From Thermoanaerobaculia bacterium (GTDB taxonomy: Bacteria > Acidobacteriota > Thermoanaerobaculia > Multivoradales > Multivoraceae): a stretch of 64,000 bases of DNA. The stretch is from NCBI GenBank assembly GCA_022822365.1, contig JAJEBV010000008.1, positions 169,524-233,523 of the forward strand, given 5' to 3'. Position numbers and translations under genes: made by a program. This document shows positions 3,258 through 61,223 of this stretch, one piece after another. Position 1 is the first letter of the stretch. Each line of letters starts with the position of its first letter. The notes beneath the pieces were generated by a model that searched no databases, had not been told where the DNA came from, and saw only the letters and a list, made by a program, of their open reading frames with translations.

Positions 3258-3295
3258 TGGCCGGAGCGTAGCGCAGCAGTGGAGTGCGGAATCAC

Positions 3296-3338
3296 GCCGC
3301 CTGCGGCGGCAGCGGGTCAGAGGACCCGCGCACCCAGA
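3296..3338. repeat. 43-nt double-hairpin repeat, copy A (variant)
   Basis: cgccgccTGcggcggcagcgggtcagaGgacccgcgcacccag. Two stem-loops (GCCGCC/GGCGGC and GCGGGTC/GACCCGC). Lies intergenic between aceB and glcF. Confidence 0.7.
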
Positions 3339-3364
3339 GGACGGCCCCGGTGGAGGGGAGCGCT

Positions 3365-8534: not shown

Positions 8535-8554
8535 CATCCACGAACGAAACGCCT

Positions 8555-8618
8555 CCGCCACTGGGTGCGCCGGCGCCCCCGCCGGCACCAGGCGCGATGC
8601 CGCGAAGCGGCGAGCCCG
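8555..8618. repeat. ~65-nt GC-rich repeat, intergenic copy
   Basis: ccactgggtgcgccggcgcccccgccggcaccaggcgcgatgccgcgaagcggcgagcccga. Lies between the tricorn stop and the PQQ-protein start. Contains the hairpin GCCGGCG-CCC-CGCCGGC. A second copy lies at 18825-18888 inside the MTase CDS. Confidence 0.7.
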
Positions 8619-8643
8619 AGCCAATCCCATTCAGGAGAATCCC

Positions 8644-12233: not shown

Positions 12234-12350
12234 AATCTCGGAGCTACTCATCATGAGATTGCGGACTGGAGATTCAGAAATCTCGGAGCTAGTGATCTTG
12301 AAATCTCGGAGTACACTAACCGGAAATCTCGGAGTACAACTGAGACTTCG
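12231..12350. repeat. AT-rich cluster of four direct 12-mer repeats GAAATCTCGGAG, with degenerate and inverted partial copies, upstream of the ATPase gene
   Basis: Exact copies at 12232, 12277, 12300 and 12323 (spacings 45, 23, 23). Partial inverted copies occur (gagatt at about 12255 and 12270). Local GC about 45% against a ~70% background. The 11-mer CTTGAAATCTC (12297-12307) recurs inverted at 33913-33923. Confidence 0.7.
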
Positions 12351-16900: not shown

Positions 16901-17347
16901 ACGATCTTCCTCGATGTCGAAGCCGACCTGGAAGCCGTCGTGACCCGCCACGCCGAAGGCCTGACCGAGTCGCTGCGCGAGCAGTTGCAAGTCGACGGCC
17001 AGGAAGCCCTGAAACGCGAAGACGAGCGCTACCGCAGCCGCCAGGGCGAAGTCTCCGAACTGATCGAGCAAACCCGCATCCAACGGCTGGAACGAGAGAT
17101 CGAGAAACTCCGCCGCGAGCAGCAGCAACGCCTCCTCTTCGATCAACGCCGCGACCTGGAGCGCATCGCCGGCTCCATCCAGGAGAAGCAACGCGAGATC
17201 GAGCATCGCCGGCGCCACTACGAAGACGCACGCGAGCAACTGGAACTCGAGCGCCGGCGGATCGTCGACCGACTCCTGCCGAGGCGCCACGCGCTCGCCG
17301 GGAAGGCGCAGGCCTTCCCCGTCGCCGTCGAGGTGCGGCTACCTTGA
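13946..17347 (+). CDS. SNF2-family helicase (DISARM DrmD-like)
   Basis: 1133 aa. SNF2 N-domain motifs (LIADDVGLGKT, DLLIVDECHNL, LFLSATPHNG) and a helicase C-domain (LIATDAASEGLNL, CPWNPSRLEQRNGRLDRYGQ). Coiled-coil C-terminus. Immediately upstream of an N6-adenine MTase. Confidence 0.8.
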   Translation: MQPSAPPSIPRVGMLARVRNRRGIVASVEPFDNPHGADAGRLHLVQVEYKDHDSPHSERLLWELEPGRKLLPPSQLPRVHDTSPMPAEDFDALVRAARWTALMPYLDPDGAGPLDRQPVSSPLHSGIRVEDYQLVPLLRALQMPRVNLLIADDVGLGKTVEAGLILKELLLRRRIRRVLVLAPAALRMQWREELDTKFALPFEVVDRDRTERLRRELGIDANPWRSFSRIVASYHYLRQPDIQEQFLAASQTHDGSPRLAWDLLIVDECHNLMPSPFGDDSELCQMLRRIAPCFEHRLFLSATPHNGHTRSFTGLLEILDPVRVSQTDELTNRARARVGQLVVRRLKRELNQESAAPRFCTRNPPEPLLLHRSRREQTLSEAFHAFRTAVRGAIAAGQARERAGTFAIEILGKRLLSCPTAFADSWYRARDGYARAERAARAATDADVTAAQRSVERETSDDRETEERTGTAAGVVGAWLLNVADSVAAEMTAIDNVLEALGFTPDGPPAIEQTPRVDARFDALSDLIDRLLLLPAATDSTPAFHDDERLVVFTEYKTTLDYLERRLRERYDSRVLTLFGSGGAGGMDDTDRNRVREAFNDQDSEVRILIATDAASEGLNLHRSARYLLHYDCPWNPSRLEQRNGRLDRYGQARDVTVHHFLSNDDPDLRFLDHVIKKADEIREDLGSVNELFDVAAHRRLIEGEDLRRVQFDLNHGLEHEVERLRSQGIPGLTAFSSQEQLGEAELLRVRGGRALADEDPAKRLAALATEIDFDAAALRLTLEAAMAATGGGRPQLRHAPAEDDFWRLLRPDLPGWRDTIDESVRQPTKDGVHGGTRSLAFDPDSLLRRVGGRGVFSPRQEVALLHLAHPMIERTLRVLTQHRLPGPNEKARWTVRRGGVPHGVDALILLSLEELAVNELRETFHHWVRTIAFPVQGGVLGERERHVPARNLAASARAARTDAGNGSLPGDLSAPTQAEEDLARTIFLDVEADLEAVVTRHAEGLTESLREQLQVDGQEALKREDERYRSRQGEVSELIEQTRIQRLEREIEKLRREQQQRLLFDQRRDLERIAGSIQEKQREIEHRRRHYEDAREQLELERRRIVDRLLPRRHALAGKAQAFPVAVEVRLP

Positions 17348-20300
17348 GCCTCCAGGGCTGGAACGATCTGCGCCACGGCGGCCTGCTGCTCGACGCGCAA
17401 CGCCAAAGCGAAATCGCCGCCTCCACCCGTGCCCGCGTCCTCGATCCGTGGCTGGAGAGCGAGGCCCGCCGGCGGGCCGACCTGCTCCGCGACCCTGGCG
17501 CCGCCAACGCCGGCGAACGCACCGAGTTCGTCAGCTTCGTGCTGGAGAGCCTGTGCGGCTTCGAACCGGACGACCTGGGCAGCCGCTGGCTGCGCGGCAG
17601 CCGCATCCCAGCGGAATGGAGCCGTCGCGCCCTGACCGGCGAAAGCGTCCGCCCAAACCACCTATGGCTGGGGCCGAAGGGAGCCGTCCTCCCCGTCTTC
17701 GTCACCGGCGACAGGCAGGTCGGCATCGGCCGCGGCCGGCGCGAAACGAGCCGCGCCCTCGGTTGGCTGCGCGCCGGCAACGAACGGCTCGCCCTGCTCA
17801 CCAACGGCCGCCAGTGGCGGCTTCTCTTCGCCGGCCTCGACTTCGACGCCTGGTGCCAGTGGGACGCCGACCTCTGGTTCGCCGAGGGGGCTCCCACGCC
17901 GGCCCTGAACGCGCTGCTCACGCTGATCCAACCGGAGCTCTGGACACCCGAGGAAGAAGGCGCCGACCCGCCCCTGCTGCGCGCGGTCCGCGACAGCCGC
18001 AAGGGCCAGTCCGAACTCTCCGAGGCACTCGGCGAACGTGTGCGCGAGGCGGTCGAACGCCTGATCCAGGGCCACGGCGAAGCCCTGAAGCAAGAGTGCG
18101 CGACCGTGGACAAGGCCGACATCTACCGCGCCGCCTGCCGCGTCGTCATGCGCCTGGTGGTCATCCTCTTCGCCGAAGCGCGGGGACTGCTGCCGCGGAA
18201 CGACGCCGTCTACCACGACAGCTACGGCCTGGGCGGCCTGCACGAATCGCTGCGGCGCCGGGCGGCGGCCGGACGCTCGCAAACCCAGAGCTACGGGGCC
18301 TGGCCGCGGCTGCTGGCGCTGTTCAAGCTGGTCCGCAAGGGCTCACACCACCCCGACCTTGCCGTTCCCGCCTACGGCGGCGACCTGTTCGCACCCGGAT
18401 CGCCTACAGCCGACGACCGCCTTTCGCGCGCTCTGGCCGTCTTCGAGACCGCGTGTCTCGACGGCGAACTCCTCTCCGACGCCGAAGTCCACGAGATGCT
18501 GGAGCGTCTCACCCGGACCCGCATCCGCATCCGCCAGGGCAAGACCAGCCGCCTCGTAGCGGCGTCCGTCGACTTCTCCGATCTCTCGACCGAGTACATC
18601 GGCGTCCTCTACGAGGGTCTGCTCGACTACGAACTCAAGACGGCGCCGAGCGACGACTCGATCATCTTCCTTGCCGTCGGCGAGCAGCCGGCGCTGCCCC
18701 TGTCACGACTGGAAGAAATGGACGACAAGGCCCTCCGCAGCCTCTTCGCCGCGATGAAGAAGGCGTCCAGCCCCGACGCCGACGAGGATTCAGCGCCCAC
18801 CGACTCCGCATCCGACGACGCTCCCCCACTGGGTGCGCCGGCGCCCCCGCCGGCATCGGGCGCGACGCCGCGAAGCGGCGAGCCCGAACCCACCGAAGAC
18901 CCCCGCCAGACCATCCGCACCCACGCCGAAGCCTGGGCCCGCCACGCCGCCCTCACTGCCGGCCTCGTGAAGAAACCACCGAAGTCCCAAGCAACCCTCC
19001 TCTCCTCCCACGAAGACGAACTCCGCAAACGCGCCGCCCAACTCGTCAACCGCGTCGTCCTGCCCAACGAGTGGTACCTCGTGCGCTGGGGCGGCACCCG
19101 CAAGGGCTCCGGCAGCTTCTACACACGGCCCGGCCTCACCGTGCCCACCGTGCAACGCACTCTTCGCCCGCTGGCCTACGACCCGCCGCTCGATGACGAC
19201 GGCAAACCCGACCGCGATGCCCCACCCGCGGACTGGACTCCTAGGCGTCCCGAGGACATCCTGAGCCTGAAGGTCTGCGACCCGGCCTGCGGCTCCGGCA
19301 GCTTCCCGCTGGCCGCACTCCGCTTCCTCACCGACGCGCTCTACGCCTCCGTCCGGCACCACCGCCGCATCGAAGACCGGGACGACCGCTCCCTCGTCCG
19401 CCTGCTCGGCCTGGACGACTCCGGGGAGACCGAGGCCGATGCCGTCGAGCGACCGGGCGACGAACTCATCCCCTGCCCACCCGACGCCGACGACTTCGAG
19501 CCGCGGCTGCGCGCCGTTCTGCGGCGCTACGTAGTCGAACGCTGCATCTACGGTGTCGACGTCGACCCGCTGGCCGTTTCCCTCTGCCAGCTCTCCCTGT
19601 GGATCGAGACGATGGACCGGGACCTCCCCTTCTCCTTCCTCGACCACAAGATCCGCTGCGGCAACTCGCTCATCGGCGCCTGGTTCGACCAGTTCCAGCA
19701 CTACCCCGCGATGGCCTGGAAGAACCGCGAAGCCGGCGACAAGAACCATTCCAACGGCGTCCACTACGAGAAGGGCGCCCAGACCAAGGCGATAAAGGAG
19801 TGGGTCAAGAACGAACTGACCCCCGACCTGCGGCACACCCTGGAGGGCCGCACCCTCTTCCACGAAGACCTGCTCGAACAGGCGGCCGCCGCCCACGGCG
19901 CCGCCCTCGAAGGCCTGGAACGCATGCACCGGCTCCCCATCCGGGACTCCGCCGCCCGTGCCCGCCTCTACCGCGAGGAACTGACCGGTTCCGACGAGTG
20001 GCGCTCGCTCAAGAACGCGATGGACCTCTGGTGCGCCTGCTGGTTCTGGCCCGCCGACGAACTGGACCGCGCTCCCCTGCCCACCACGTTCACCGACCCC
20101 GGGCCCGAGACGCGCGCCGTAGCCGAACGCATCGCAGCCGCGATGCGCTTCTTCCACTGGGAACTGGAGTTCCCGGATGTGTTCCGGGAAGAGGGAGCGG
20201 GCTTCGACGCGATGCTGGGCAACCCACCATGGGACATCGCCAAACCGAAGTCGCAGGAGTTCTTCTCCAGCATCGATCCGCTCTACCGCTCCTACGGCAA

Positions 20301-22683
20301 GCAGGAAGCCCTGCGCCGGCAGAACGGCTACTTCGACGAGGACCAGGAGATCGAGCGCGACTGGCTCGCCTACAACGCCCGCTTCCGCGCCCAATCGAAC
20401 TTCGCAGCTCGTGCGGCCTCTCCCTTCGGCGATCCCGCGGAGAACGACCAGAGCGAACGGCGCTTTTACCTTGGCAAGGGCAATCTCAGTCTGCACGACA
20501 GTTGGCGCGAGACACGAGGTCGCTCACGCTGCTACGCCGACACCGACCACTCTTTCAGACACCAGGGGTCGGCTGACCTGAACCTGTACAAGCTGTTCCT
20601 AGAGCAGGCTCATGCGCTGCTCGCCATCGGAGGGCGGCTCGGCTTCCTCGTCCCGTCGGGCCTGTACTCCGACAAGGGCACCGGCCCTCTGCGGGACCTG
20701 TTCCTAGAACGGTGCCGATGGGAGTGGCTCTTCGGCTTCGAGAACCGAGCCAAGCTGTTCCCTATCGACAGCAGGTTCAAGTTCAACTCGGTGATCGTCC
20801 AGAAAGACAGCCAGACCCACGTCATCCGTACCGTCTTCATGCGCCGCGACCTGACCGATTGGGAAGAGGCCGAGGAGTTCGCCGTCCCCTACAGCCTCGA
20901 TCAGGTCAACCGATTCAGCCCGAAGAGCCGCGCGATCTTGGAGATCGAGTCACAACGTGACCTCGAAGTCCTCGAGAAGATCTACGCCAACTCGGTACTC
21001 CTCGGCGACGGCGGCCCCAACGGCTGGGGCATCGGCTACGCCACCGAGTTTCATATGACGAACGATTCGAAGCTCTTCCCGCCCCGCCCCCGGTGGGAAG
21101 CGAAGGGTTACCGCCCCGACGAGTACAGCCGCTGGCTCCTCGGCAACTGGCATCCGATCGACGAACTGTGGTCCGAACTCGGCGTCGGTCCCGATAATCC
21201 CGAGCCCGCTGCGATCGAAGTCGAAGACTGGCTGTACGAGCCCGACGCCAGCCCGGAGCGCCGCCAAGCTGAGCGCAGCTTCATCCATGGCCATTTCCTC
21301 GCACCCGGCGATGTCGAAGCCACCGGGTGGGAACTGCGGTGCGCCCAACCGCCCTACGACCGCCTGCCCGTGCCAAGAGTCGCCATTCCCGAGGGCATCG
21401 TCCTGTCGAGAGAAACCGACGCATGGATCCACGAGACCGAGATCGAGGACACGGCCCTTCCGCTGTACGAAGGCCGGATGATCGGCCAGTTCGACTTCAG
21501 CGAGAAGGGCTGGGTCAGCGGTAAGGGAAGAAGTGCCGTCTGGCGCGAGATTCCGTGGGAGCAGAAGCAGATCGAACCCCAGTACCTGATGGCGCAGAGC
21601 GCGTACGTCTCATCCGGGAAGTCGGTTTTGCGACCAAAGATCGCCTACATGCGAGTCAGTTCCTCGACAAACTCCAGGTCCACGATCGCTACGTATCTCG
21701 GCAGCCACCCCGCCGGGGACAGCGTCTTCTACTTCGTGCCCTGTGACGATGACCCGGAGGTTGCCACAGTCATCGCCTCTATCTTCTCGACGCTGGCGTT
21801 CGACTTCGTCATTCGCGCACGCCTCAGCGGCTTGAACATGAGCGAGTTCGTCATGGTGGACGCGGCCCTTCCGCCACGTCTCGGAAGCCTCACGCAAGCC
21901 ATGCTAGGGCCCGCCATAGCCCTTTGCCTCACCGGCCCCTCGTCAGCCGTGGAGCGCCTCCGCCTAGCGGCAGCCGACGGGTCTTCCCGTGCTTCCCGGC
22001 TCAAATCGCTGGCGGCCCTCACGCCGGCCGCACGGCTCGAGAGGATCTCGGCACTAGACGCGATAGTCGCAGCTTCCTTTGGCCTACGAACAGGCGACCT
22101 GAACTACGTGCTCAGGGGCTGCGACGAGATAGAGCCGGAGGGTCTGGCGCCGAAGGGCTTCTGGCGAGTCGACAAGGACAAACCGCCGGAACTCCGCCAC
22201 ACGGTCCTGGCCCAGATCGCCTTCACCGACCTTCAGCGCCACATCGAGTCCGCCGCCGGCGACCGCGAAGCCGGAATTCTGGCTTTCATGTCACAGAACC
22301 AGGGCGAAGGCTGGCACCTCCCCGAGACCCTCCGCCTCGCCGACTACAACCTCGGCCACGACGACCGCGCCCAAGAGCACCAGCGGGTAGCCACCGAACT
22401 CGGTCCTCGCTTCTACGATTGGCAGCTCGCCCAGACGCCTGAAGAAGCCTGGGCCGAAACCCACCTCCACGCCCGCAACCTCTTGGGCGAACACGCCTAC
22501 CGCAGACTTCGAGCCGAAATCGAGCAAAGGCCTCCAGAGCACACTCCCGCCACCACCGCCCCGACCTTCTCCGAGATCGCCGAAGAGCGCCACCGTTGGG
22601 ACTACTGGGTCAACCGGACGGCAGAGCCCACCTCGAAGCCCTCGAAATCAGTAAACACGGACCAGACTGACCTCTTCGACTGA
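17344..22683 (+). CDS. large N6-adenine DNA methyltransferase (PglX/DrmMI-like, gamma-class)
   Basis: TTG start overlapping the drmD-like stop (cTTGA). About 1779 aa. SAM motif I LKVCDPACGSGSFPLAAL (about 19272-19305) and catalytic motif IV GNPPWD (about 20221-20232). The track ORF 16624.. is extended upstream by read-through of the previous gene in another frame. Contains an in-frame copy of a ~65-nt repeat at 18825-18888. Confidence 0.8.
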   Translation: MSLQGWNDLRHGGLLLDAQRQSEIAASTRARVLDPWLESEARRRADLLRDPGAANAGERTEFVSFVLESLCGFEPDDLGSRWLRGSRIPAEWSRRALTGESVRPNHLWLGPKGAVLPVFVTGDRQVGIGRGRRETSRALGWLRAGNERLALLTNGRQWRLLFAGLDFDAWCQWDADLWFAEGAPTPALNALLTLIQPELWTPEEEGADPPLLRAVRDSRKGQSELSEALGERVREAVERLIQGHGEALKQECATVDKADIYRAACRVVMRLVVILFAEARGLLPRNDAVYHDSYGLGGLHESLRRRAAAGRSQTQSYGAWPRLLALFKLVRKGSHHPDLAVPAYGGDLFAPGSPTADDRLSRALAVFETACLDGELLSDAEVHEMLERLTRTRIRIRQGKTSRLVAASVDFSDLSTEYIGVLYEGLLDYELKTAPSDDSIIFLAVGEQPALPLSRLEEMDDKALRSLFAAMKKASSPDADEDSAPTDSASDDAPPLGAPAPPPASGATPRSGEPEPTEDPRQTIRTHAEAWARHAALTAGLVKKPPKSQATLLSSHEDELRKRAAQLVNRVVLPNEWYLVRWGGTRKGSGSFYTRPGLTVPTVQRTLRPLAYDPPLDDDGKPDRDAPPADWTPRRPEDILSLKVCDPACGSGSFPLAALRFLTDALYASVRHHRRIEDRDDRSLVRLLGLDDSGETEADAVERPGDELIPCPPDADDFEPRLRAVLRRYVVERCIYGVDVDPLAVSLCQLSLWIETMDRDLPFSFLDHKIRCGNSLIGAWFDQFQHYPAMAWKNREAGDKNHSNGVHYEKGAQTKAIKEWVKNELTPDLRHTLEGRTLFHEDLLEQAAAAHGAALEGLERMHRLPIRDSAARARLYREELTGSDEWRSLKNAMDLWCACWFWPADELDRAPLPTTFTDPGPETRAVAERIAAAMRFFHWELEFPDVFREEGAGFDAMLGNPPWDIAKPKSQEFFSSIDPLYRSYGKQEALRRQNGYFDEDQEIERDWLAYNARFRAQSNFAARAASPFGDPAENDQSERRFYLGKGNLSLHDSWRETRGRSRCYADTDHSFRHQGSADLNLYKLFLEQAHALLAIGGRLGFLVPSGLYSDKGTGPLRDLFLERCRWEWLFGFENRAKLFPIDSRFKFNSVIVQKDSQTHVIRTVFMRRDLTDWEEAEEFAVPYSLDQVNRFSPKSRAILEIESQRDLEVLEKIYANSVLLGDGGPNGWGIGYATEFHMTNDSKLFPPRPRWEAKGYRPDEYSRWLLGNWHPIDELWSELGVGPDNPEPAAIEVEDWLYEPDASPERRQAERSFIHGHFLAPGDVEATGWELRCAQPPYDRLPVPRVAIPEGIVLSRETDAWIHETEIEDTALPLYEGRMIGQFDFSEKGWVSGKGRSAVWREIPWEQKQIEPQYLMAQSAYVSSGKSVLRPKIAYMRVSSSTNSRSTIATYLGSHPAGDSVFYFVPCDDDPEVATVIASIFSTLAFDFVIRARLSGLNMSEFVMVDAALPPRLGSLTQAMLGPAIALCLTGPSSAVERLRLAAADGSSRASRLKSLAALTPAARLERISALDAIVAASFGLRTGDLNYVLRGCDEIEPEGLAPKGFWRVDKDKPPELRHTVLAQIAFTDLQRHIESAAGDREAGILAFMSQNQGEGWHLPETLRLADYNLGHDDRAQEHQRVATELGPRFYDWQLAQTPEEAWAETHLHARNLLGEHAYRRLRAEIEQRPPEHTPATTAPTFSEIAEERHRWDYWVNRTAEPTSKPSKSVNTDQTDLFD

Positions 22684-22799: not shown

Positions 22800-23846
22800 A
22801 TGGCCGGACTCCCGCGAATCGTCAAGGACCAGCTAGAGCAGGCGAAAGGCGCGTGCCTCGCCGCCGTCGAGACCTACAACAGGCCCGGCGTGGCCTTTCG
22901 GACACGGACATTCACCGTTCTCATGGCGATTGCGTGGACGTCGCTGTTCCATGCGATCTTCTACCGTCGCGCCCGAAAGCCCTGGTACGTGCGAAGCGGC
23001 GCCGGCCGCGGCATCCGGTATGAGAAGGTAGACGGGGAACCGAAGCACTGGGAGCTGAGCGAATGCACGCGCCAGTTCTATGGCGGCCACAACCCTCCAC
23101 AACGCAAGAACCTCGAGTTCATGGTGCTTCTCCGGAACAAGATCGAGCACCGCCACCACCCCGAACTCGATCTCGCGCTGTACGGTGAATGCCAAGCGTG
23201 GCTGATGAATTTCGAGGAACTTCTCGTAGCCGAGTTTGGGGCCGCCCAAGCACTCGCCGGACATCTTGATCTCGCCCTGCAGTTCTCGGCCTTTCGGCCC
23301 GAAGGACAGCAAGAGGCGATCCGGCGCCTGAACTCATCCGCAGCCAAAGACCTCCTAAGCTTCATTCAGAGCTACCGCGCCGGTCTCCCGGCAGATGTTC
23401 TAGAGAGTTCCTCGTACTCCGTCAGAGTCTTCCTGCTCCCCAAGCTCGCCGTCCGGGACAACGCAGCCGACCTCGCCGTGGAGTTCGTGCCGTACGACCC
23501 CACGAACCCCGAAGAGATGAAGCGGTTGAAGCGAGTCACAGCGATGATCAAGGAGAAGCTGACACCCGTTGCAAGTGCCGGCCTCATGAGACCGTCAGAA
23601 GTCGTCGCTCGCATTCAGGAACACCTACCCGACTTCTCCATCCACACGCACACGCAAGCCTGGAGGACCTACAACGTCCGGCCGCCGACCGGTGCCAACA
23701 GCCCAGCTTCGACTCGGCCCGAGTTCTGCATCTACGACGAGTTAGCTCAAGGTTATGGCTACACGGAAGCTTGGGTGAAGTTCCTCCTCCGGAAACTCAG
23801 TGACACGGCTGAGTTCGACCGAGTGATGAGCTGGAAGCCCAGCTAG
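22800..23846 (+). CDS. hypothetical protein (defence-island accessory; no motif recognised)
   Basis: 348 aa ORF with an ATG start and a protein-like, non-Arg-biased composition. Positioned immediately after the MTase. Confidence 0.5.
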   Translation: MAGLPRIVKDQLEQAKGACLAAVETYNRPGVAFRTRTFTVLMAIAWTSLFHAIFYRRARKPWYVRSGAGRGIRYEKVDGEPKHWELSECTRQFYGGHNPPQRKNLEFMVLLRNKIEHRHHPELDLALYGECQAWLMNFEELLVAEFGAAQALAGHLDLALQFSAFRPEGQQEAIRRLNSSAAKDLLSFIQSYRAGLPADVLESSSYSVRVFLLPKLAVRDNAADLAVEFVPYDPTNPEEMKRLKRVTAMIKEKLTPVASAGLMRPSEVVARIQEHLPDFSIHTHTQAWRTYNVRPPTGANSPASTRPEFCIYDELAQGYGYTEAWVKFLLRKLSDTAEFDRVMSWKPS

Positions 23847-23972: not shown

Positions 23973-24830
23973 TCAAGGTCTCGGCATTCGCCACCCGAAC
24001 AGCTCTCGCCACGTCTCAACCGCCGCCCTCAGCTTGCCCTCGTACTCGAGCTGCAGCGCCTCTTCACTGATCGCCAACCACCCGCGCGCGATGTCGGCGA
24101 GTTCTCTGCGACGTCCTTGTCCTATCCCAGCGTTCACACTTGGGCCTAAGCCCACCGGATCGGGCCAGTCGTCTGTTATCCGGTCCGCGATCGAAGCCAT
24201 GTAGAACCGGATCTCATGGCGGTACTCGCCAAACGGCTCCGTCACAAGGTCCAGGGCCATGACCTCGAGGAGAAACGCGGGCTCGATGGGGTCTCCTGCC
24301 TCGCGGTTGATTCCCTTCACCATCTTCACGAAGGGCACGAACTTCTCGTCGCACTCCTTATTCTTCGCGGTCACGAGCGCGTGCTGCTCCCGCGGATCCG
24401 TGGCCATCCACGCCGACCCGCTAGGCATCCAGTAGCCTCCTCCGCGTCGCGGGAACACCGGAGCGACCTCGTAAGACGCAACGTCTTCCTCGCCATAGTT
24501 GATCGTGACGACGTTGTCGTCGGCGGCCAGGTCCGGCCACCGCGTCGCCAGCAGGTCGCGCAACGCGAGCACCGCCGCCGTGCCCGTACCTTCGGCCAAG
24601 TCCGCCTGCGGTCCCTCCGGGTCAACGACGACAAAGATGTCCACGTCCTTCAACCTCTTCGTTTTCGTGTGCCGCCTGTAGCTGCCGGTCAGGAAGTCGT
24701 CCACTAGTTGCCACGATGCCCCGATGTGGTCACGCACCAACTCGTGCCGGGTTTGGGCCTGTCGACTCTCGGTCCTGGTGATCTCAAGATTCGACTTCAG
24801 GTTGTCGAAAGCGTCATCGACGTAGCTCAT
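23973..24830 (-). CDS. cGAS/DncV-like nucleotidyltransferase (CD-NTase, SMODS domain)
   Basis: An ATG at 24830 gives MSYVDD (the track starts at GTG 24839). Pol-beta NTase motif GSYRRHTKTKRLKDVDIFVVV (GS...DxD) and a third acidic residue in SYEVAPVF. Last gene of a four-gene coupled operon with a Trip13-like ATPase. Confidence 0.7.
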   Translation of the reverse strand: MSYVDDAFDNLKSNLEITRTESRQAQTRHELVRDHIGASWQLVDDFLTGSYRRHTKTKRLKDVDIFVVVDPEGPQADLAEGTGTAAVLALRDLLATRWPDLAADDNVVTINYGEEDVASYEVAPVFPRRGGGYWMPSGSAWMATDPREQHALVTAKNKECDEKFVPFVKMVKGINREAGDPIEPAFLLEVMALDLVTEPFGEYRHEIRFYMASIADRITDDWPDPVGLGPSVNAGIGQGRRRELADIARGWLAISEEALQLEYEGKLRAAVETWRELFGWRMPRP

Positions 24831-24839
24831 TCTCTTCAC

Positions 24840-27400: not shown

Positions 27401-28246
27401 TCAACCTCGCTCTGCGGCCTCGTACACCGGCTTCCTCAACTTGAAGAACCACTCCGGCACCATCGGGCTAAGCCGCCGATGTTCGAAGAGGCGGGCCTGC
27501 ACGAGCCGGACGTCGCAAAGTGTCTGACTACCAGACTGCGCCCCAGCCCGTGACAGGAAGCGATGCAGCTTCTCCATGCGGATCCTTGCCGCAGATTGAG
27601 CAGTAACCGCCAATACCACCCACGCGACAAGCCTGAGACACGCCGCCACCAAGAGAACCACGTCCAGCAGTGAAGCCTCTGCAAGCACCGCCCCCAGAAG
27701 GACCGTCACCACCGACGCACCTACCAACGACTTGACGACCCAGATCCACTCCCTGCGTAATCGCTCCTCCCAGCGACAGCTAGCCCTCTGGCAGTGCAAC
27801 TGCGCCGCCACCGGCTCCGCGGGAATGGCTTCCGCTCGATACCAGTCAACCAGATCCTCCGGCGAGTCCCTTCGCGCGCTCCCTTTTCTCGCCAGCTCCT
27901 TCACTCTGTCATCCGTGGGCTGCTCCACACCGCTGTGAGCCGACCAAGGTAGGTCAAGGACGAAACAGTCAAACGCCTCCTGGATCGTCGCAGCTTCCTC
28001 CTTCATCCGGTCCCCCCACCGAGCCAGAAGCGGCTGGTCCACGAACCAAAGCAAGACAACGATGACGGTCGCTGCGTGACTGTCCGACCCCGCCTCCCTG
28101 GTCAAGCCCCAGAGCGCTACAACCGCAACGGCCACCACGCCCCCGAGCCGCACGCCCTCTACCTTCTTGACCTGCCGGTACAGCCAACGCAGCGCCGCCA
28201 GCCTTTCCAGTGACCGCTGGCTGTTCTGCCGCTCCCGAATGCTCAC
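27401..28246 (-). CDS. predicted multi-pass membrane protein (candidate effector)
   Basis: 281 aa, GTG start. Hydrophobic helices (GVVAVAVVALWGL, ATVIVVLLWFV, LVGASVVTVLLGAVLAEASLLDVVLLVAACLRLVAWVVLAV). No enzymatic motif recognised. Confidence 0.5.
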   Translation of the reverse strand: MSIRERQNSQRSLERLAALRWLYRQVKKVEGVRLGGVVAVAVVALWGLTREAGSDSHAATVIVVLLWFVDQPLLARWGDRMKEEAATIQEAFDCFVLDLPWSAHSGVEQPTDDRVKELARKGSARRDSPEDLVDWYRAEAIPAEPVAAQLHCQRASCRWEERLRREWIWVVKSLVGASVVTVLLGAVLAEASLLDVVLLVAACLRLVAWVVLAVTAQSAARIRMEKLHRFLSRAGAQSGSQTLCDVRLVQARLFEHRRLSPMVPEWFFKLRKPVYEAAERG

Positions 28247-51299: not shown

Positions 51300-52243
51300 T
51301 GACCGTCTCCCCCGATTTCCAACGCCCCGACGCCGCCGTAGAACCCCGCTTCCCGGACGTCGACGCGGTCATCGCCGCACTCCGCGCCGAGGACTACATC
51401 GCGGAGCGCGACCTCGCCACCGCGATCTACCTGTCGCTGCGCATGGGCAAGCCGATCTTCCTGGAGGGCGAGCCCGGCGTCGGCAAGACGGAGGTCGCCA
51501 AGGCCCTCTCACGCTGCCTGGGCTCCGAGCTGATCCGGCTCCAGTGCTACGAGGGCCTCGACGTCTCGACCGCCGTCTACGAGTGGAACTACCGCCGGCA
51601 ACTGCTCCACCTGCGCGGGCTCGAGGCGACGGGCGGCGGCGACGCCCGCACCGCGGTCGACGACGTGTTCTCCGCCGACTTCCTGCTCGAGCGGCCCCTG
51701 CTGCGAGCGGTCCGCCAGAGCCGCAGGGGCGAGGCCCCGCCCGTGCTGCTGATCGACGAACTGGACCGGGCCGACGAGGAGTTCGAGGCCTACCTGCTCG
51801 AAATCCTGGCCGACTTCCAGATCACGATCCCGGAGATCGGCACCGTCGCCGCCGAGACGCCGCCGGTCGCCGTCGTGACGTCCAACCGCACCCGCGAAGT
51901 CCACGACGCGCTGAAGCGCCGCTGCCTCTACCACTGGATCGACTTCCCGGACTACGAGAAGGAAGTCCAGATCGTCCTCCGCCGCGTCCCCGAGGCGCCC
52001 GAGCACTTCGCCGCCGAGATCGTCCGCCTGGTCCAGGCGCTCCGCGAGGAGGATCTCTTCAAGCATCCAGGCGTCGCCGAGACCCTCGACTGGACGAACG
52101 CCCTGATCGCCCTCGACCAGGAAACGCTCTCCGACGCCATCCTGCGCGACACGCTGGGCGTGCTACTCAAGTACCAGGACGACCTCGACAAGATCGACGA
52201 CGAGGCGGTGCGCCGGCTGTTGCGGAAGAGCCAGTCAGAGTAG
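51299..52243 (+). CDS. MoxR-family AAA+ ATPase
   Basis: 314 aa. FLEGEPGVGKTEVAKAL, LLIDELDRA. MoxR/CoxD-like. Confidence 0.85.
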   Translation: MTVSPDFQRPDAAVEPRFPDVDAVIAALRAEDYIAERDLATAIYLSLRMGKPIFLEGEPGVGKTEVAKALSRCLGSELIRLQCYEGLDVSTAVYEWNYRRQLLHLRGLEATGGGDARTAVDDVFSADFLLERPLLRAVRQSRRGEAPPVLLIDELDRADEEFEAYLLEILADFQITIPEIGTVAAETPPVAVVTSNRTREVHDALKRRCLYHWIDFPDYEKEVQIVLRRVPEAPEHFAAEIVRLVQALREEDLFKHPGVAETLDWTNALIALDQETLSDAILRDTLGVLLKYQDDLDKIDDEAVRRLLRKSQSE

Positions 52244-52266
52244 CGGGCACGCCAGAGAGCAAGGAC

Positions 52267-53169
52267 TCAAGGAGTGAGCGTCCGGGCTACTCGGATACCG
52301 TTGTTGCGGAAACGGTTGCCGGCGCTGTACCTGTAGCGGTTCGCGGAGCGGAGGAACCTCGGATAGCCGTACCAGGAACTGCCGCGCAAGACGCGACGGG
52401 AACAATCGCCCGACTGCCAGGCGCTCCCGTCCGAGGGCGCACCCCCGTAGCTACCATTCCAGCAGTCCTGCACCCACTCGAACACGTTCCCGTGCATGTC
52501 GTGAAGACCCAACCCGTTCGCGTCAAACGAACCCACGGGAGCCGTCCCTTCCCAATCCCACCGGCTCCCGCAACCACTGCAGTTCGCGCGACCCGAACCG
52601 ATCTCGTTCCCCCAACTGTAAGCCGTCGACGTACCAGCGCGAGCCGCATACTCCCACTCCGATTCGCTCAGCAAACGGTACTCCGCTCCCGTCTCGGTAG
52701 ACAACCAACTCACGTACTCCTGAGCGTCATCCCAGGACACGTTCACCACCGGACGATTGCCGCGACCCCAGCCCTCATCGTCCGGACGATGACTGCAACC
52801 GCCGGCCGACACGCAAGCCTCCCACTGCGCGAACGTCACCTCGTGCTTCGACACCGCGAAAGCCTGCGGGATCGTCACCTCGTGCACCGGCAGCTCGGCG
52901 TCCCCGCAGCGCACACCCGACACGCAACCCATACGAAAACCGCCCGCCGGAATCACCACCATCTCCGGACCGTTCCCACCCGAACGCAGCGCGTCATGGA
53001 ACGTCTCGCCCGATACGCCCCGACCGCTGCCGGCGGAAGCCGCCGCAGCCCCGGTTTCCGCCGCATCGATCTGCCTGTCCGGGGGCAACTGCGCGGCGGC
53101 GGGAGTCGACGTACACAACACAGCGAATGCCAGGGCGGCAGTCGGAAGTCGCAGGGGCCTCTCGGTCAT
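52267..53169 (-). CDS. formylglycine-generating enzyme (SUMF1/FGE-sulfatase) family protein, secreted
   Basis: 300 aa with a signal peptide. FGE-sulfatase blocks (RGGSW..., RSANRYRYSAGNRFRNNGIRVARTL). Confidence 0.8.
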   Translation of the reverse strand: MTERPLRLPTAALAFAVLCTSTPAAAQLPPDRQIDAAETGAAAASAGSGRGVSGETFHDALRSGGNGPEMVVIPAGGFRMGCVSGVRCGDAELPVHEVTIPQAFAVSKHEVTFAQWEACVSAGGCSHRPDDEGWGRGNRPVVNVSWDDAQEYVSWLSTETGAEYRLLSESEWEYAARAGTSTAYSWGNEIGSGRANCSGCGSRWDWEGTAPVGSFDANGLGLHDMHGNVFEWVQDCWNGSYGGAPSDGSAWQSGDCSRRVLRGSSWYGYPRFLRSANRYRYSAGNRFRNNGIRVARTLTP

Positions 53170-53224
53170 CTCGCTCTCCTTGGGATGGCGGGTGGCGCGA
53201 CTCTACTAGCCACCCCCTCGGCGC

Positions 53225-54430
53225 TTGGACCGGCCCTCGGCGACGATGACTGAGACGGCCGCGGCTGTGACGCGCGGCCACCTGCTGCGCAACATCGTCC
53301 TCTTCGGCCGCCTGCTGCGGGTCGGCAGCCTCGACGTCACGCCGACCCAGCTCCGCGACTGGGTGGCCGCGCTCGAACTGGTCGACCTCGCCCGCAAGCG
53401 GGACGTGAAGGCGGCGGCCCAAGCCGTCCTCGTCAGCCGGCGCCGCGACCTGCCCTGGTTCAACAAGGCGTTCGAGCTGTTCTGGCAGGCCCGCGACCCG
53501 CGGGAGCTCGAACAACTCGAACTCGGACTGATGATCCAGCGCCGGACCGAGCGGACAAAGCGAGCGGCGATCCAGAAGCTGGCGCTGAACGACAGCGACG
53601 GGGGCGATGAGCGCGAGGACGACCGGGACCGTACCGCCCGCGCCCAGCTCTACAGCGCCCGCGAAGCGTTGCGCCAGAAGGACTTCGCCGAACTCGAAGG
53701 CGACGAACTGGACGACATCAAGCGCCTGATGGCCACGATGCGTTGGGAGCTCGAGACCCGCCGTACCCGGCGGCTCCGGCCGGACCGCCACGGCCACCGC
53801 CTCGACCTGCGCCGGACGCTGCGCCGCAGCCTGACCCAGGGCGGGGAAATGGTCGACCTGGTCCACCGGGGCCGCAAGCACCGGCGGCGACCGCTGGTCC
53901 TGCTCTGCGACATCTCGGGCTCCATGGAGCCCTACTCGCGGCTGCTGCTCCACTTCATCTACGCCGTCTCACACCCACGGTCCGCCGACCCGGGCGTGTC
54001 GCGAGTCGAGGCATTCGCGTTCGGCACCCGGCTGACCCGTCTGACCCAGGAGCTGGCCGAACGCGACGTCGACCGGGCGCTACAGGCAGCCGCCCATCGC
54101 ATCGAGGACTGGGGCGGCGGCACCCGCACCGGCGACGCCCTGCGCGAGTTCAACTTCACCTGGAGCCGCCGCCTGCTCGGTCAGGGCGCCGCCGTCCTGA
54201 TCATCAGCGACGGCTGGGACCGCGGCGACATCGGCCTGCTCGGCCACGAGATGGAACGCATCCACCGGAGTTGTCATCGCCTGATCTGGCTCAATCCACT
54301 GCTGGGTTCGCCGGACTACCAGCCGCTGACCCGCGGCATCGTGGCCGCGCTCCCGCATGTCGACGACTTTCTGCCGGTCCACAACCTGGCGAGCCTGGAG
54401 CAGTTGGGGGACTTGCTGGCCGCGATGTAG
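53225..54430 (+). CDS. VWA-domain protein (CoxE-like) partner of MoxR
   Basis: 401 aa. VWA MIDAS region LVLLCDISGSM. Confidence 0.8.
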   Translation: MDRPSATMTETAAAVTRGHLLRNIVLFGRLLRVGSLDVTPTQLRDWVAALELVDLARKRDVKAAAQAVLVSRRRDLPWFNKAFELFWQARDPRELEQLELGLMIQRRTERTKRAAIQKLALNDSDGGDEREDDRDRTARAQLYSAREALRQKDFAELEGDELDDIKRLMATMRWELETRRTRRLRPDRHGHRLDLRRTLRRSLTQGGEMVDLVHRGRKHRRRPLVLLCDISGSMEPYSRLLLHFIYAVSHPRSADPGVSRVEAFAFGTRLTRLTQELAERDVDRALQAAAHRIEDWGGGTRTGDALREFNFTWSRRLLGQGAAVLIISDGWDRGDIGLLGHEMERIHRSCHRLIWLNPLLGSPDYQPLTRGIVAALPHVDDFLPVHNLASLEQLGDLLAAM

Positions 54431-54473
54431 CGCCGCCTTCGGCGGCAGCGGGTCAGAAGACCCGCGCACCCAG
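54431..54473. repeat. 43-nt double-hairpin repeat, copy B
   Basis: cgccgccttcggcggcagcgggtcagaagacccgcgcacccag. Lies between convergent VWA and nucleoside hydrolase genes. Identical to copy C. Confidence 0.75.
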
Positions 54474-54486
54474 CGGATCCAGCGGA

Positions 54487-55610
54487 CTACCGCCGGAGGT
54501 TCTGCTCCAGAAAGCGCGTCATCATCCGCTCGATGAACGCGGCGTCGTCGATCTCCAGCGCGACCGTCGACGCCGGCTCGGCCCCGGGTTCGAACAGGGT
54601 CATGCTGCGCTCGTCGACGGTGACGCGGCCATGTTCGAGGCCGAACAGGTCGGGCCACAGCAGGTAGCCGACGGCGACGGCGTCGAAGAGGCGCGGCGTG
54701 GTCTGGTTCCGCCCCTCGTTCCGCCACAGGGAGTAGAGCGCGGTGACCGCGTCGGTCAGCGGCGTGCCGCGCATGTGCAGGTGGAGTCGCCGGTCGGCGT
54801 CGAGGCGGACGTGATCCGTCACGTCGAGCGGGATGTAGACCACGTCCGTGCCTCCGGCCTGCACCGCAGCGTCGAAGATGCGCGACGAGGCGGCGTCCGC
54901 GAGGACGTTCCACTCGCGCTGCGGGTCGCCGCCGTCGTAGCCCGAGCGGATGGAGCCGTACATCGAGACGACCCGCTTCGCGTTCTTCAGCACGTCCGGG
55001 TCGAGTTCCAGCGCGTCGGCGATGTTCGTCACCGGGCCGACGGTGAGCAGCGTGATCTCGCCTGGACTGGCTGCCAGGGTCTCGACGATGAACTCGGCCG
55101 CCGGCTGCGCCCGCGGCTGCACCTCGTCGAAACCGCGCGCCCAGTGGAACTGCCGGTTGTACGGCGCCTCGGCGAACTGCTCGTGGGGGTTGCCGTCACG
55201 CAGCGTGACCAGGGGCGTCTCTCGGCCGACGTGGACGGGGACGTCATCGAACCCCGTCTCCCAGAGCATGCGGAGCGCCAGGGGCGCGCGGTCCGGCGTG
55301 CGCGCATGACCGACGGTGATGCCGACAAGCTCGATCTCGGGGCTCGCGAGAAGCAGAGCCAGAGCGTAGGCGTCGTCGATGTCCGAGCCGATGTCGCAGT
55401 CGAAGAGGACCTTCTGGGGCTCGGCTGGGGTGGGTTGCGCGGCAGCGGGCGCCATGGAAACGAGGAGGGCGAGGAGGAGAAGAGCCGGAGCCGGCCAGAG
55501 GCCGGCGCGTTCTTGACGCCGCCTTCGGCGGCAGCGGGTCAGAAGACCCGCGCACCCAGTGGCCAACGCCGCAACAAGTTGCCTCCCGAGACCGTCCGTT
55601 TCCTTCGTCA
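54487..55610 (-). CDS. inosine-uridine-preferring nucleoside hydrolase family protein, secreted
   Basis: Start ATG at 55610 (MVMTKET...) with the SD GGAGAGGAG upstream. Signal h-region LLLLALLVSMAPAAA. IUNH aspartate cluster DCDIGSDIDDAYAL. The N-region encodes a copy of the 43-nt double-hairpin repeat. Confidence 0.75.
55517..55559. repeat. 43-nt double-hairpin repeat, copy C (inside the 5' coding region of the nucleoside hydrolase gene)
   Basis: Identical to copy B. Its reverse complement is in frame with the hydrolase ORF and encodes GCAGLLTRCRRRRRQERAG in the signal-peptide n-region. Confidence 0.7.
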
Positions 55611-55672
55611 TCACCATGCTCCTCTCCTCGCTTCCATGCCTTTCGACGCCGAGGGCGTAGTATTCCGCGTTC

Positions 55673-56596
55673 ATGCCCGACTCGCGACTCCGACGGTTCG
55701 TTCGCGATCCCCTGTTCGTGTTCCTGGTGATCGGGGTCGGGGTGTTCGCGCTCGACCGCATGGCCGGCGGGGTCTTCGACGCGGAAGGCCGAACGATCGT
55801 CGTCAACCGGGCGCAGGTGATCCGTCTGGCCGATCTCTGGAGCGCGCAGATCGGCCGGCTGCCGACCGTGGCGGAACTCGACTCCCTGGTTGACGACCAC
55901 GTCCGGGAGGAGATCCTGGTGCGAGAGGCGGCCCGCATGGGTCTCGACCAGGACGACACGATCGTCCGCCGGCGCCTGGCCCAGAAGATGTCCTTCCTGA
56001 TCGAGGACACGGCGGTCGCGGACGCGGTGCCGGACGCCGAGCTTGAGCAGTACTTCGAGGAGAACGCGGAGCGCTACGGGGAACCGCGGCGCTTCACGCT
56101 CCGCCACGTCTACGTCAGCCCCGATCGCCGCGGCAGCGACGAGGAAGCGGCCAGGGCGGCTTCCGACATTCTCGATCAGCTCCGCGCCGAGGGCAACGAC
56201 GCCGCCCCCGAGAACACGCTCTGGCGGCGACTCGGTGATCCCTTCATGCTGCGCCGCGAGTACGGACGCCGCACCGCCGAGGACCTGGCCGAACTGTTCG
56301 GCGGCGCCTTCGTCGACGGACTGGAGACACTGCCGATCGGCGAGTGGGCGGGACCGGTCGAGTCCGCCTACGGCTACCACGTCGTTCGGCTCTCCGTCCG
56401 CACGGAAGCGCAGCCGGCGGTGCTCGAGGACGTGCGCCGGCGCGTGCTGGACGACGCCCAGCGCGACGCTCGCGACGCCGCGAACCGGGCCGCGCACGAG
56501 CAACTGCGCGAGCGCTACCGGATCGTGGTCGAGGAGATCGACTTCCTCTCCGAACTGGAAGGCGGCGGCGTGGGCGAGGCCGGAGCCGAGCCCTGA
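55673..56596 (+). CDS. parvulin-type peptidyl-prolyl cis-trans isomerase (SurA/PpiD-like), membrane-anchored
   Basis: 307 aa. N-terminal TM. Parvulin core FGGAFVDGLETLPIGEWAGPVESAYGYHVVRL. Confidence 0.6.
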   Translation: MPDSRLRRFVRDPLFVFLVIGVGVFALDRMAGGVFDAEGRTIVVNRAQVIRLADLWSAQIGRLPTVAELDSLVDDHVREEILVREAARMGLDQDDTIVRRRLAQKMSFLIEDTAVADAVPDAELEQYFEENAERYGEPRRFTLRHVYVSPDRRGSDEEAARAASDILDQLRAEGNDAAPENTLWRRLGDPFMLRREYGRRTAEDLAELFGGAFVDGLETLPIGEWAGPVESAYGYHVVRLSVRTEAQPAVLEDVRRRVLDDAQRDARDAANRAAHEQLRERYRIVVEEIDFLSELEGGGVGEAGAEP

Positions 56597-59752: not shown

Positions 59753-61119
59753 AGAACGCACTCCCCCTGTTGACTCCGGCAGCGATCCTGGCACTCGCGT
59801 TCCTTGCCGCTCCGGCTGCCCCGCCGGCCGCAGCGGCCGACGCGGACACGCCGACGTTCAGCCGCGACATCGCGCCGATCTTCCAGCGCTCGTGCCAGCG
59901 CTGCCACCGGCCCGAGACCGCCGCGCCGATGTCTCTGATCACCTACGAGCAGATCCGGCCCTGGGCACGGTCCATCCAGCGCCGCGTCGAGTCCCGGCAG
60001 ATGCCGCCCTGGCACATCGACCGGACGATCGGCGTCTACGAGCCGGACCCGAGCCTCAGCGACGAGGAGATCGCCCTGGTGACGGCCTGGGTCGATGGCG
60101 GCGCTCCGCGCGGCAACCCCGCCGACCTGCCGCCGTCGATCGAGTGGCCGGACGGCGACGCCTGGGAGTACGGCGAGCCCGACCTCGTTGTCGAGATGCA
60201 GGAGGACATGGTGGTGCCGGCCGAGGGCCCCGACCTGTTCGTCAACTTCATCGCGGACACGGGTCTCACCGAAGATCGCTACATCCGCTGGATCGAGGTC
60301 AAGCCGAGCAAGGCCGGCAGGCCGACCGTCCACCACACGATGGTCTATGCCATCCAGGACGACGCGGAGTACGTCGGCGAGGACTTCTTCGAGCGCGACG
60401 ACGACCCGAACCGTCGCGACGCCGACGGCAACCCGGTCGGCTCGCTCCTCATCGAGTACGCGGTCGGCAACACCGGCGACATCTACGCCGAGAACACCGG
60501 CAAGCTGCTGATGGCCGGCGCCAAAATCCGTTTCAGCGGCCACTACCACTCGCTCGGCGAGGAGATCCGCGACCGCCAGCGGGTCGGCTTCGGCTTCTAC
60601 CCCAAGGGCGTCGTGCCGAAGCACCGGATCGTCTCCACCCGGCTCTTCGCCGGCCTGCCAAGCAACCGCGGCTGGCGCAACAACGAGCTCTCCATCCCGC
60701 CCGGCGCCGACAACGTCCGCCACGACGGCTACCGCGTCCTCGACCGGCCGATCCAGTTGATCAGCTTCCAGGCCCACATGCACTACCGCGGCAAGGGGAT
60801 GGAACTCGAGGCGATCCATCCCGACGGCCGCCGCGAACTGCTGACCCGGATTCAGAACTACGACTTCAACTGGCAGATCGCCTATCCCTACAAGCACCCG
60901 CCGGTTTTCCCCGCCGGCACTGTCCTGCACGTGACCTCCTACCACGACAACTCGGAGAACAACCCCTACAACCCCGACCCGACCGCCTGGGTCGGCTGGG
61001 GCAACCGCACCGTCGACGACATGGCGATCGGCTGGACGAACTTCGTGTTCCTGTCGGAAGAGGACTACGAGGAGCACACGGCGGCCGGCGCCGCGACGGG
61101 GGCCGGCGCGGGCGACTAG
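59749..61119 (+). CDS. c-type cytochrome domain protein (PSCyt1/planctomycete cytochrome C-like N-terminus)
   Basis: Signal peptide. FSRDIAPIFQRSCQRCH contains a CxxCH haem-binding motif in the PSCyt1 arrangement. Confidence 0.55.
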   Translation: MKNALPLLTPAAILALAFLAAPAAPPAAAADADTPTFSRDIAPIFQRSCQRCHRPETAAPMSLITYEQIRPWARSIQRRVESRQMPPWHIDRTIGVYEPDPSLSDEEIALVTAWVDGGAPRGNPADLPPSIEWPDGDAWEYGEPDLVVEMQEDMVVPAEGPDLFVNFIADTGLTEDRYIRWIEVKPSKAGRPTVHHTMVYAIQDDAEYVGEDFFERDDDPNRRDADGNPVGSLLIEYAVGNTGDIYAENTGKLLMAGAKIRFSGHYHSLGEEIRDRQRVGFGFYPKGVVPKHRIVSTRLFAGLPSNRGWRNNELSIPPGADNVRHDGYRVLDRPIQLISFQAHMHYRGKGMELEAIHPDGRRELLTRIQNYDFNWQIAYPYKHPPVFPAGTVLHVTSYHDNSENNPYNPDPTAWVGWGNRTVDDMAIGWTNFVFLSEEDYEEHTAAGAATGAGAGD

Positions 61120-61223
61120 GCAAGGCCACCCGAGCCGCTACCCTGAACCCGCACGCCCGGTATCCGGCCCGCTTATCTCTCACCAAGAGACGCTGAACTG
61201 CCGCCGTCTCGCTGCCGCCGGCG

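Follow-up and report, generated by a model that had tools for sequence, protein, structure and literature searches.

In a 64,000-nt stretch of DNA from a Thermoanaerobaculia bacterium (assembly GCA_022822365.1, contig JAJEBV010000008.1, positions 169,524 to 233,523 of the forward strand; hereafter, the window), a nucleoside hydrolase gene (PF01156; 54487-55617, minus strand), which starts at ATG 55617 or at ATG 55611 behind the Shine-Dalgarno (SD) sequence GAGGAGAGGAG, converges on a VWA/CoxE gene (53225-54430). The 43-mer CGCCGCCTTCGGCGGCAGCGGGTCAGAAGACCCGCGCACCCAG is found in the gap between the two genes (54431-54473) and, without a single change, within the coding sequence of the hydrolase (55517-55559). 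A third copy at 3295-3337 carries two mismatches, both of which are located in loops (TTC to TGC and AGAA to AGAG). In dinucleotide shuffles, 0.00 matches to the 43-mer are expected at up to three mismatches, compared to the three copies found. A first-pass annotation of the window had already reported these copies; the positions of the two exact ones and the loop-only mismatches were correct, and the variant copy had been misplaced at 3296-3338. The two consecutive stem-loops that it described are also predicted by folding, on either strand and as RNA or DNA (z -2.2 to -3.2). The 43-mer belongs to a very abundant family of small hairpin repeats of sponge-associated Acidobacteriota, which is apparently undescribed; apart from the terminal inverted repeat (TIR) families of PMC3733652, full-text searches brought up no account of comparable repeats from sponge symbionts or Acidobacteriota.

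Anatomy and copies of the repeat in the window

The 43-mer is only part of an element, the natural reading of which is on the minus strand. Its conserved part is a 'tail', GCGCACCCAG, whose reverse complement is the 10-nt head CTGGGTGCGC on the minus strand. The basic unit starts with this invariant head, which is followed by a first hairpin (HP1) with a 7-bp stem and a 4-nt loop and then by optional hairpins. The 43 nt originally delimited comprise the head, HP1 and one kind of second hairpin, written in reverse orientation. In the A copies, HP1 has the form GCGGGTC-NNNN-GACCCGC, and the next hairpin (HP2), GCCGCC-GAA-GGCGGC, constitutes the 'alpha' arm. A second subfamily, B, was found by a repeat search at 8553-8622 and 18821-18890; its two copies are 93% identical to each other and contain the HP1 GCCGGCG-CCCC-CGCCGGC, followed by a linker and the hairpin GCCGC-GAAG-CGGCG, the 'beta' arm. 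The only sequence common to the A and B subfamilies is the 10-mer head, of which the window contains five exact occurrences, confined to the five elements. The second and third hairpins are interchangeable between units; a third hairpin, which is palindromic, is frequent.

Copy A1 (3295-3340, minus strand) consists of CCT, the head, HP1 (GCGGGTC CTCT GACCCGC) and HP2 (GCCGCC GCA GGCGGC). It lies between two minus-strand open reading frames (ORFs), namely malate synthase (3365-4936), which stops 24 nt before the element, and an ORF at 1959-3257, which starts 37 nt after it, and is in sense orientation to both. Copy A2 (54431-54476, minus strand) is composed of the head, HP1 and HP2 and takes up the greater part of the 56 nt that separate the convergent VWA/CoxE and hydrolase genes; it starts right behind the TAG codon of the VWA/CoxE gene, and its other end is 10 nt away from the hydrolase stop codon at 54487. 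The intergenic location of these two copies agrees with the original annotation, as does the position of the third, A3, within the hydrolase frame, where the 43-mer reads ...LLTRCRRRRRQERAGLW.... A3 (55483-55563, minus strand) forms an 81-nt (27-codon) in-frame insert in the region encoding the hydrolase signal peptide and encodes ATGCAGLLTRCRRRRRQERAGLWPAPA. It contains the head (55550-55559), HP1 (55534-55551), HP2 (55518-55532), a spacer of around 10 nt and a third hairpin, HP3 (55490-55507), which reads CGCCGGCC TCT GGCCGGC on the minus strand. Copy B1 (8553-8622, plus strand; head at 8561-8570) is intergenic and located upstream of a gene starting at 8644. Copy B2 (18821-18890, plus strand) lies in frame (PPLGAPAPPPASGATPRSGEPEP) within an Eco57I-like type IIG restriction-modification ORF, which encodes a protein of around 1,800-2,000 amino acids.

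A structure-constrained element of the repetitive extragenic palindrome (REP) type, a terminator and an RNA motif had initially been offered as explanations for the 43-mer. A1 and A2 are not intrinsic terminators: a T-run is absent behind both intergenic copies, and a terminator scan, for which a GC-rich hairpin with a subsequent T/U run is the hallmark, revealed no terminator-like site at 3100-3500 or 54300-55750. A promoter scan at the copies also found nothing. A known RNA motif could not be recognized either; Rfam gave 0 matches in the window at the gathering score, and the best sub-threshold match at E values up to 10 was Pseudomon-groES with 27.9 bits compared to a cut-off of 50. The structural constraint, for which the two loop substitutions seen at first were too thin a basis, is borne out by the copy number, the extragenic bias and the covariation of HP1 in related genomes.

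Abundance, hairpin conservation and turnover of the family

Homologs of the hydrolase with 76-95% identity were retrieved on long metagenomic contigs, and eight syntenic loci were taken, which were chosen via the protein and not via the repeat. The window and these eight loci contain 37 heads in 210 kb. In the sampled loci of related genomes, heads occur at a density of about 1 per 6-8 kb, from which copy counts for whole genomes are extrapolated. A scan of a species-representative genome collection with the head and a loosely specified HP1 matched at least 112 stretches, and at least 120 stretches were matched in metagenomes. Among the matches listed, nearly all derive from sponge-derived metagenome-assembled genomes (MAGs) labelled Thermoanaerobaculia, 'Candidatus Multivorans', Holophagales or Acidobacteria. 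Complete chromosomes with members of the family include OY762911.1, OZ220688.1, OZ242353.1 and OZ244786.1. With a covariance model of the 49-nt alpha unit that relies on sequence only, 169 matches were obtained in 0.91 Mb, around 67 of which span the full length. Four matches outside the Acidobacteriota (L014, L061, L065 and L082) look like chance on inspection, being single, located in coding sequence and with unpaired 'stems'; another one, L113, was excluded without inspection. Among those inspected, the sole genuine-looking match outside the phylum is L083:57-200, on the complete chromosome OZ241745.1 of an alphaproteobacterial MAG, where two tandem copies with a period of 117 nt each consist of CTGGGTGCGC and a perfect 7-bp hairpin with a TCCT/TCCC loop. 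This locus could reflect cross-phylum sharing of the tag-plus-hairpin module.

The pairing of HP1 is conserved, and its sequence is variable. Of 222 heads, 186 have a 7-bp stem without an unpaired position, and at least eight sequence variants of the stem exist; the head and HP1 together measure 26-30 nt, and a bare head without hairpin is rare. At the three pairs that were left free by the search pattern, 176 of 178 pattern matches are complementary, compared to around 20% expected by chance. In a set of 32 unbiased heads, 92.4% of the cells are paired, compared to 74.4% in shuffles, and 41 cells show a double change compared to 16 in shuffles; a value as high as the observed one was not obtained in any of 500 shuffles. 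Controls in which the alignment was slid give 29-54% pairing, and a larger model-derived alignment agrees with the covariation of HP1.

According to crude, GC3-based (G+C content at third codon positions) gene calls, 78% of 234 heads are intergenic, compared to a share of intergenic DNA of around 13% of the sequence. By type of gap, 69 heads are found between convergent genes, 76 between tandem genes and 16 between divergent genes; divergent gaps make up around 30% of the intergenic length. The elements are hence biased towards extragenic DNA and the 3' ends of genes. In tandem contexts, 49 heads share the strand of the genes, compared to 27 on the other strand.

Units are present as singles, in tandem arrays with a period of 34-40 nt or as inverted dimers. 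Most copies are single. Arrays of three head and hairpin units with the 34-40 nt period were seen at L071:1916-2064 and L109:4026-4100, and a 9-nt head is present in tandem triplicate (CTGGGTGCG x3) at L004:11296-11352 on the minus strand. The 234 heads include 14 convergent pairs (133-175 nt), so that about 12% of the heads reside in dimers. The dimers carry perfect terminal inverted repeats of 26-29 bp and fold into a single long hairpin; internally, the arms of a dimer are not alike. For the dimer of L001, the fold comprises a 29-bp terminal stem and three internal hairpins (-73.7 kcal/mol, z = -9.8). No target-site duplication is present at any of the 13 dimers inspected, where the flanks merely extend the palindrome (ccg...cgg, caca...tgtg).

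The content of orthologous sites changes between close relatives. The window is around 94% identical to the loci L001 and L008; the spacer between the hydrolase and VWA genes contains the 46-nt A2 in the window, a 142-nt dimer in L001 and a single B-type unit in the orientation of A2 in L008. Compared to L001, the window lacks 124 nt, which are bounded by the 12-nt direct repeat CGCCGCCYTCGG, and A2 is therefore most simply read as a deletion derivative of an inverted dimer.

Relation to known repeat families and the probable mode of spread

REP-type repeats are most familiar from Proteobacteria. Like the REP and REPIN elements of Enterobacteria, Pseudomonas and Stenotrophomonas (PMC3116915, PMC3337134, PMC3733652), the elements described here combine a short conserved tag with an adjacent imperfect palindrome of around 20-40 nt, reach, by extrapolation, hundreds of copies, are located chiefly between genes that converge or run in the same direction, are found as singles, inverted dimers and clusters, vary between related genomes and are occasionally intragenic. 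However, the tag is the 10-mer head, the second and third hairpins can be exchanged, singles prevail over doublets, a RAYT gene flanked by the elements was not seen in the sampled DNA, and the hosts are sponge Acidobacteriota (Thermoanaerobaculia). The described REP superfamilies are defined by a GTAG or a CGTC tag (PMC3733652); the elements conform to REPs in size, copy number, location and hairpin, but not in this tag. The family thus behaves like REP/REPIN elements, with a tag outside the two described superfamilies.

A further comparison is offered by the TIR families and the RAYT-like 'TIRYT' genes, which include an Acidobacteria-specific group (Di Nocera et al. 2013, PMC3733652). TIRs are likewise moderately to highly repeated inverted-repeat modules, some of which are double palindromes, and exist as singles, dimers and groups, and the phylum is known to encode RAYT-like Y1 transposases; however, the motif shared by the TIR families, GGGGWSAS (PMC3733652), does not match the head. 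The Rickettsia palindromic elements (RPEs) are palindromic repeats that persist in frame in genes that are still apparently functional, as A3 and B2 persist inside ORFs, which makes them an analogy and not a family to which the elements belong: RPEs are around 100-150 bp long, carry a CGTC tag and are restricted to Rickettsia, whereas the coding copies described here are found in a signal-peptide n-region and in a disordered linker, and insertion before hydrophobic h-regions appears to recur.

In our view, the 43-mer is probably part of a REP-like family of small multi-copy non-coding DNA elements of Thermoanaerobaculia and 'Candidatus Multivorans', which has spread as mobile DNA and one copy of which, A3, is translated. 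We infer that the elements are non-autonomous mobile DNA that increases in number within genomes and that the copies may later be reshaped by deletion and gene conversion. HUH/Y1 enzymes of the RAYT/IS200 type recognize a tag-plus-hairpin structure on single-stranded DNA. The likeliest agent would be a single-strand transposase of this kind (RAYT/TIRYT-type), which would recognize the head and the hairpin; we propose it because the tag stands beside a hairpin whose structure is kept while its sequence varies and because target duplications are absent. A1 and A2 are ordinary members of the family and would place stable hairpins in 3' or intercistronic RNA.

Several observations weigh against this proposal. 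A hidden Markov model (HMM) of RAYT/TIRYT proteins, built from 16 sequences of the supplement of PMC3733652, gave no match at E<10 in 1.07 Mb of element-bearing loci and none at E<1 in a further 0.76 Mb; the search covered 1.83 Mb in total around some 490 heads, which corresponds to around 1-2% of the genomes concerned. The recurrent neighbours of the elements encode TPR, PQQ-dehydrogenase, ABC, SDR and other housekeeping proteins and no transposase. Likewise, no transposase is present in the window among ten ORFs scanned singly (13.9-30.6 kb) and the 25 commonest of 83 Pfam families elsewhere. The strand of the heads shows no bias with respect to local GC skew (148:147), which counts against a Y1 enzyme, since a Y1 transposase that targets the lagging strand might leave such a bias. 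GTAG and CGTC are absent from the element ends on both strands, where the conserved end CTGGGTGCGC is preceded by CCG or A. HP2 is nearly invariant, and its structure is barely tested, with a CG-to-GC change at one pair in 6 sequences. Moreover, the case for the translation of A3 is a comparative one throughout.

Other routes to a mobilizing enzyme gave no candidate. Searches by phmmer with E. coli RayT and the TnpA protein of IS200 found nothing, and an acidobacterial TIRYT profile run against a protein database returned only soil Acidobacteriaceae and was uninformative. ORFs between inverted heads 350-1600 bp apart, which were considered as REPtron candidates, turned out to encode a peptide deformylase, a DsbA-like protein and similar products.

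The inverted dimers raise the question of whether the elements are miniature inverted-repeat transposable elements (MITEs), that is, internally deleted insertion sequences (ISs) whose 26-29-bp terminal inverted repeats, made up of head and HP1, are recognized by a DDE transposase, with the singles as decayed halves. Bacterial MITEs such as Correia/NEMIS, RUP, ERIC and Nezha indeed resemble the 133-175-nt dimers in size, terminal inverted repeats, long hairpins and proximity to genes, and A2 looks like the half left by the 124-nt deletion between 12-nt direct repeats. However, MITEs are recognized by terminal inverted repeats together with a target-site duplication, and here the former are found in the dimers and the latter in 0 of 13. 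In addition, a transposase, a parent IS or any longer element with the same ends was not seen in 1.8 Mb, only the small fraction of heads given above is part of dimers, and the tag-plus-hairpin module also exists alone and in tandem arrays. A conventional MITE is therefore unlikely to be the source of the family.

As a second alternative, the elements might be cis-acting RNA or DNA hairpins selected by the host, which serve as stabilizers or terminators at 3' ends, as modulators of translation at 5' ends or, via the 10-nt head, as sites for nucleoid or uptake proteins. The enrichment between convergent genes and the depletion in divergent gaps, which harbour promoters, the excess of gene-strand heads in tandem contexts, the preservation of the hairpin through compensatory change and the link of sense orientation with the 5' ends of genes for secreted proteins (see below) would all fit such a role. 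Nevertheless, the hairpins lack a T-run and the terminator scan was empty, no Rfam family was matched, element content varies at orthologous sites of genomes that are 94% identical, in-frame copies reside within coding sequence, and the bare head is rare, unlike an uptake sequence. We regard host selection as the origin of the family as quite improbable, even though a cis-acting role would be compatible with a mobile origin, too, as in classical REPs.

Elements in probable signal-peptide n-regions and other in-frame copies

The h-region of the hydrolase signal peptide, LWPAPALLLLALLVSMAPAAA, followed by QP, is located downstream of the A3 insert. Several orthologs are free of the insert and have a plain signal peptide, for example MTKRTDGFGASLAAVLLTLLLAPMAPAPAQP, whereas insert-bearing orthologs contain the sequence ...TGCAG..CRRRR..RAGLxPAP... 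between the MTK.TDG.G start and the hydrophobic core. The N-terminal motif MTK.TDG.G and the SD sequence with its ATG are common to both groups. A comparison with hydrolase orthologs lacking the insert had been recommended at the outset; such orthologs do exist, and their DNA alignment with insert-bearing ones sets the insert at 81 nt (27 codons; 55483-55563) rather than at 43 nt or 13 codons. At this orthologous site, HP1 differs on both arms between species (GGGTC/GACCC, CGGCG/CGCCG and CGGCC/GGTCG). The conserved SD sequence and ATG are in frame with the catalytic domain in 10 of 10 insert-bearing loci. Measured from the ATG to the catalytic-domain motif KVLF, the distances are 198, 198, 279, 225, 210, 252 and 213 nt; three further insert-bearing loci, L241, L243 and one more, were judged by eye. 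Hence, the hydrolase insert is conserved in frame across species.

Most likely, A3 is translated and adds an Arg-rich extension to the n-region of the signal peptide, because the window lacks a start codon (ATG, GTG or TTG) from the insert up to Met55 (55455) and because the closest relatives lack Met55. The opposite view, in which the gene starts downstream, at Met55 or at a non-canonical codon as foreseen in the first-pass annotation, and A3 is an element of the 5' untranslated region, draws on the crude GC3-based gene caller, which favoured the start at 55455, on the ortholog P0018, which is annotated from a downstream GTG, and on the GC-rich DNA, which is open in a second frame, too (frame 2 without stops). 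However, the upstream ATG of P0018 (L241) is also in frame, and each of at least seven different insert lengths is divisible by three, which has a probability of around 1/729 by chance. In addition, the closest relatives without Met at position 55 are P0001 and P0002, a start at Met55 would remove the h-region although insert-free orthologs have a canonical signal peptide, and the start with SD sequence, ATG and MTK.TDG.G is shared irrespective of the insert. An untranslated A3 is therefore very unlikely, and the outcome that the first-pass annotation had named as its refutation is not borne out by the orthologs. A protein-level repeat as the cause of A3 can be dismissed, since this DNA does not code for protein elsewhere and other genes use it in three different frames.

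In the favoured reading, with A3 as a translated mobile element, the copy would have landed in the signal peptide of the hydrolase and now provide a 27-residue Arg-rich extension of its positively charged n-region. A Sec-type signal peptide can tolerate such an extension, and selection would have kept A3 in frame across species; the insert-bearing hydrolase is presumably still secreted. In a neighbour-joining tree of the mature hydrolase domain, alleles with and without the insert are intermingled, and the resolution of the tree is too weak for multiple gains to be told apart from losses or recombination. Elements close to a 5' end seem to lead start-codon prediction astray: for both P0010 (L004) and P0018, the public hydrolase calls begin downstream of the conserved SD sequence and ATG. 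Annotators should be aware that gene starts beside the elements are often mis-called, as in these two cases.

Other coding copies fall into two classes. B2 resides in a hypervariable acidic, disordered linker of the type IIG ORF, and an element at that position is found only in the nearest orthologs (P0151, P0214 and locus L068). The second class consists of copies at the 5' edges of genes. In a screen of 289 intact elements for those at most 45 codons away from an in-frame start of an ORF with GC3 support, which used home-made gene calls and a simple hydrophobicity rule (a strongly hydrophobic 12-mer within 45 residues), 42 elements were in sense and 29 in antisense orientation. A hydrophobic, signal-like core follows the element in 22 of the 42 sense cases, compared to 3 of the 29 antisense cases (Fisher p = 3e-4). 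In 18 non-duplicate sense cases from around 14 independent genes, a canonical start codon is absent between the element and the hydrophobic core. The genes are unrelated and encode, for instance, ankyrin-repeat, TPR and lipoprotein-like proteins, and the elements are read in three frames, one of which (..WVRR..) has a GTG inside the head. Judged by these predictions, around 14 other genes for secreted proteins appear to carry a sense-oriented element just before the hydrophobic signal core (L011, L031, L058, L080, L088, L092, L095/L099, L100, L129, L170, L176, L180 and L207).

It is tempting to speculate that the elements represent an undescribed tag-plus-hairpin superfamily, defined by the tag CTGGGTGCGC, in sponge-symbiont Acidobacteriota and possibly in a co-resident Alphaproteobacterium, whose sense copies have repeatedly been absorbed into, or have helped to build, Arg-rich n-regions of the signal peptides of secreted proteins, namely the nucleoside hydrolase, ankyrin-repeat and TPR proteins and lipoproteins. 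This broader reading is tentative and on the whole doubtful, and the same reserve applies to its corollary that the head supplies a GTG start codon in one frame. If it were true, mobile DNA would repeatedly provide sequence for secretion signals and perhaps also structure at the 5' end of mRNAs, by which the expression of secreted proteins is tuned.

The main interest of the family lies in this conserved and possibly recurrent occupation of signal-peptide n-regions, which, if the association holds genome-wide, would be an unusual recruitment of selfish DNA into protein-targeting sequences. The hydrolase itself provides a natural experiment on the tolerance of n-regions, with a 27-codon insert that is kept in frame across species and absent from others. 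In addition, the dense repeat family marks uncultured sponge-symbiont Acidobacteriota and offers a handle for strain typing and for the diagnosis of assembly errors in sponge MAGs.

Some further features of the window concern neither the hydrolase nor its signal peptide. The region 13946-34000, which includes the B2 host ORF, has a lower GC3 and looks like a defence island: it contains a SNF2/ResIII helicase (13946-17347), the Eco57I-like methylase/restriction ORF (17344-22683), DUF3644 (22800-23846), a CBASS-like pair of a SMODS nucleotidyltransferase (23973-24839) and an S_4TM effector (27401-28246), as well as an AAA ATPase and a helix-turn-helix regulator. In gene content, the window differs from L001 by an FGE-sulfatase gene (52267-53169; region 52239-53256), which is present in the window and not in L001, and by around 1.2 kb of extra coding DNA in L001 at the place of a 105-nt gap (61119-61223) in the window. 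Finally, an unrelated, AT-richer direct repeat, GAAATCTCGGAG..., is present in three to four copies at 12232-12333, within the 132-nt gap that separates a gene ending at 12233 from one starting at 12366, and might serve as an operator or a regulatory array.

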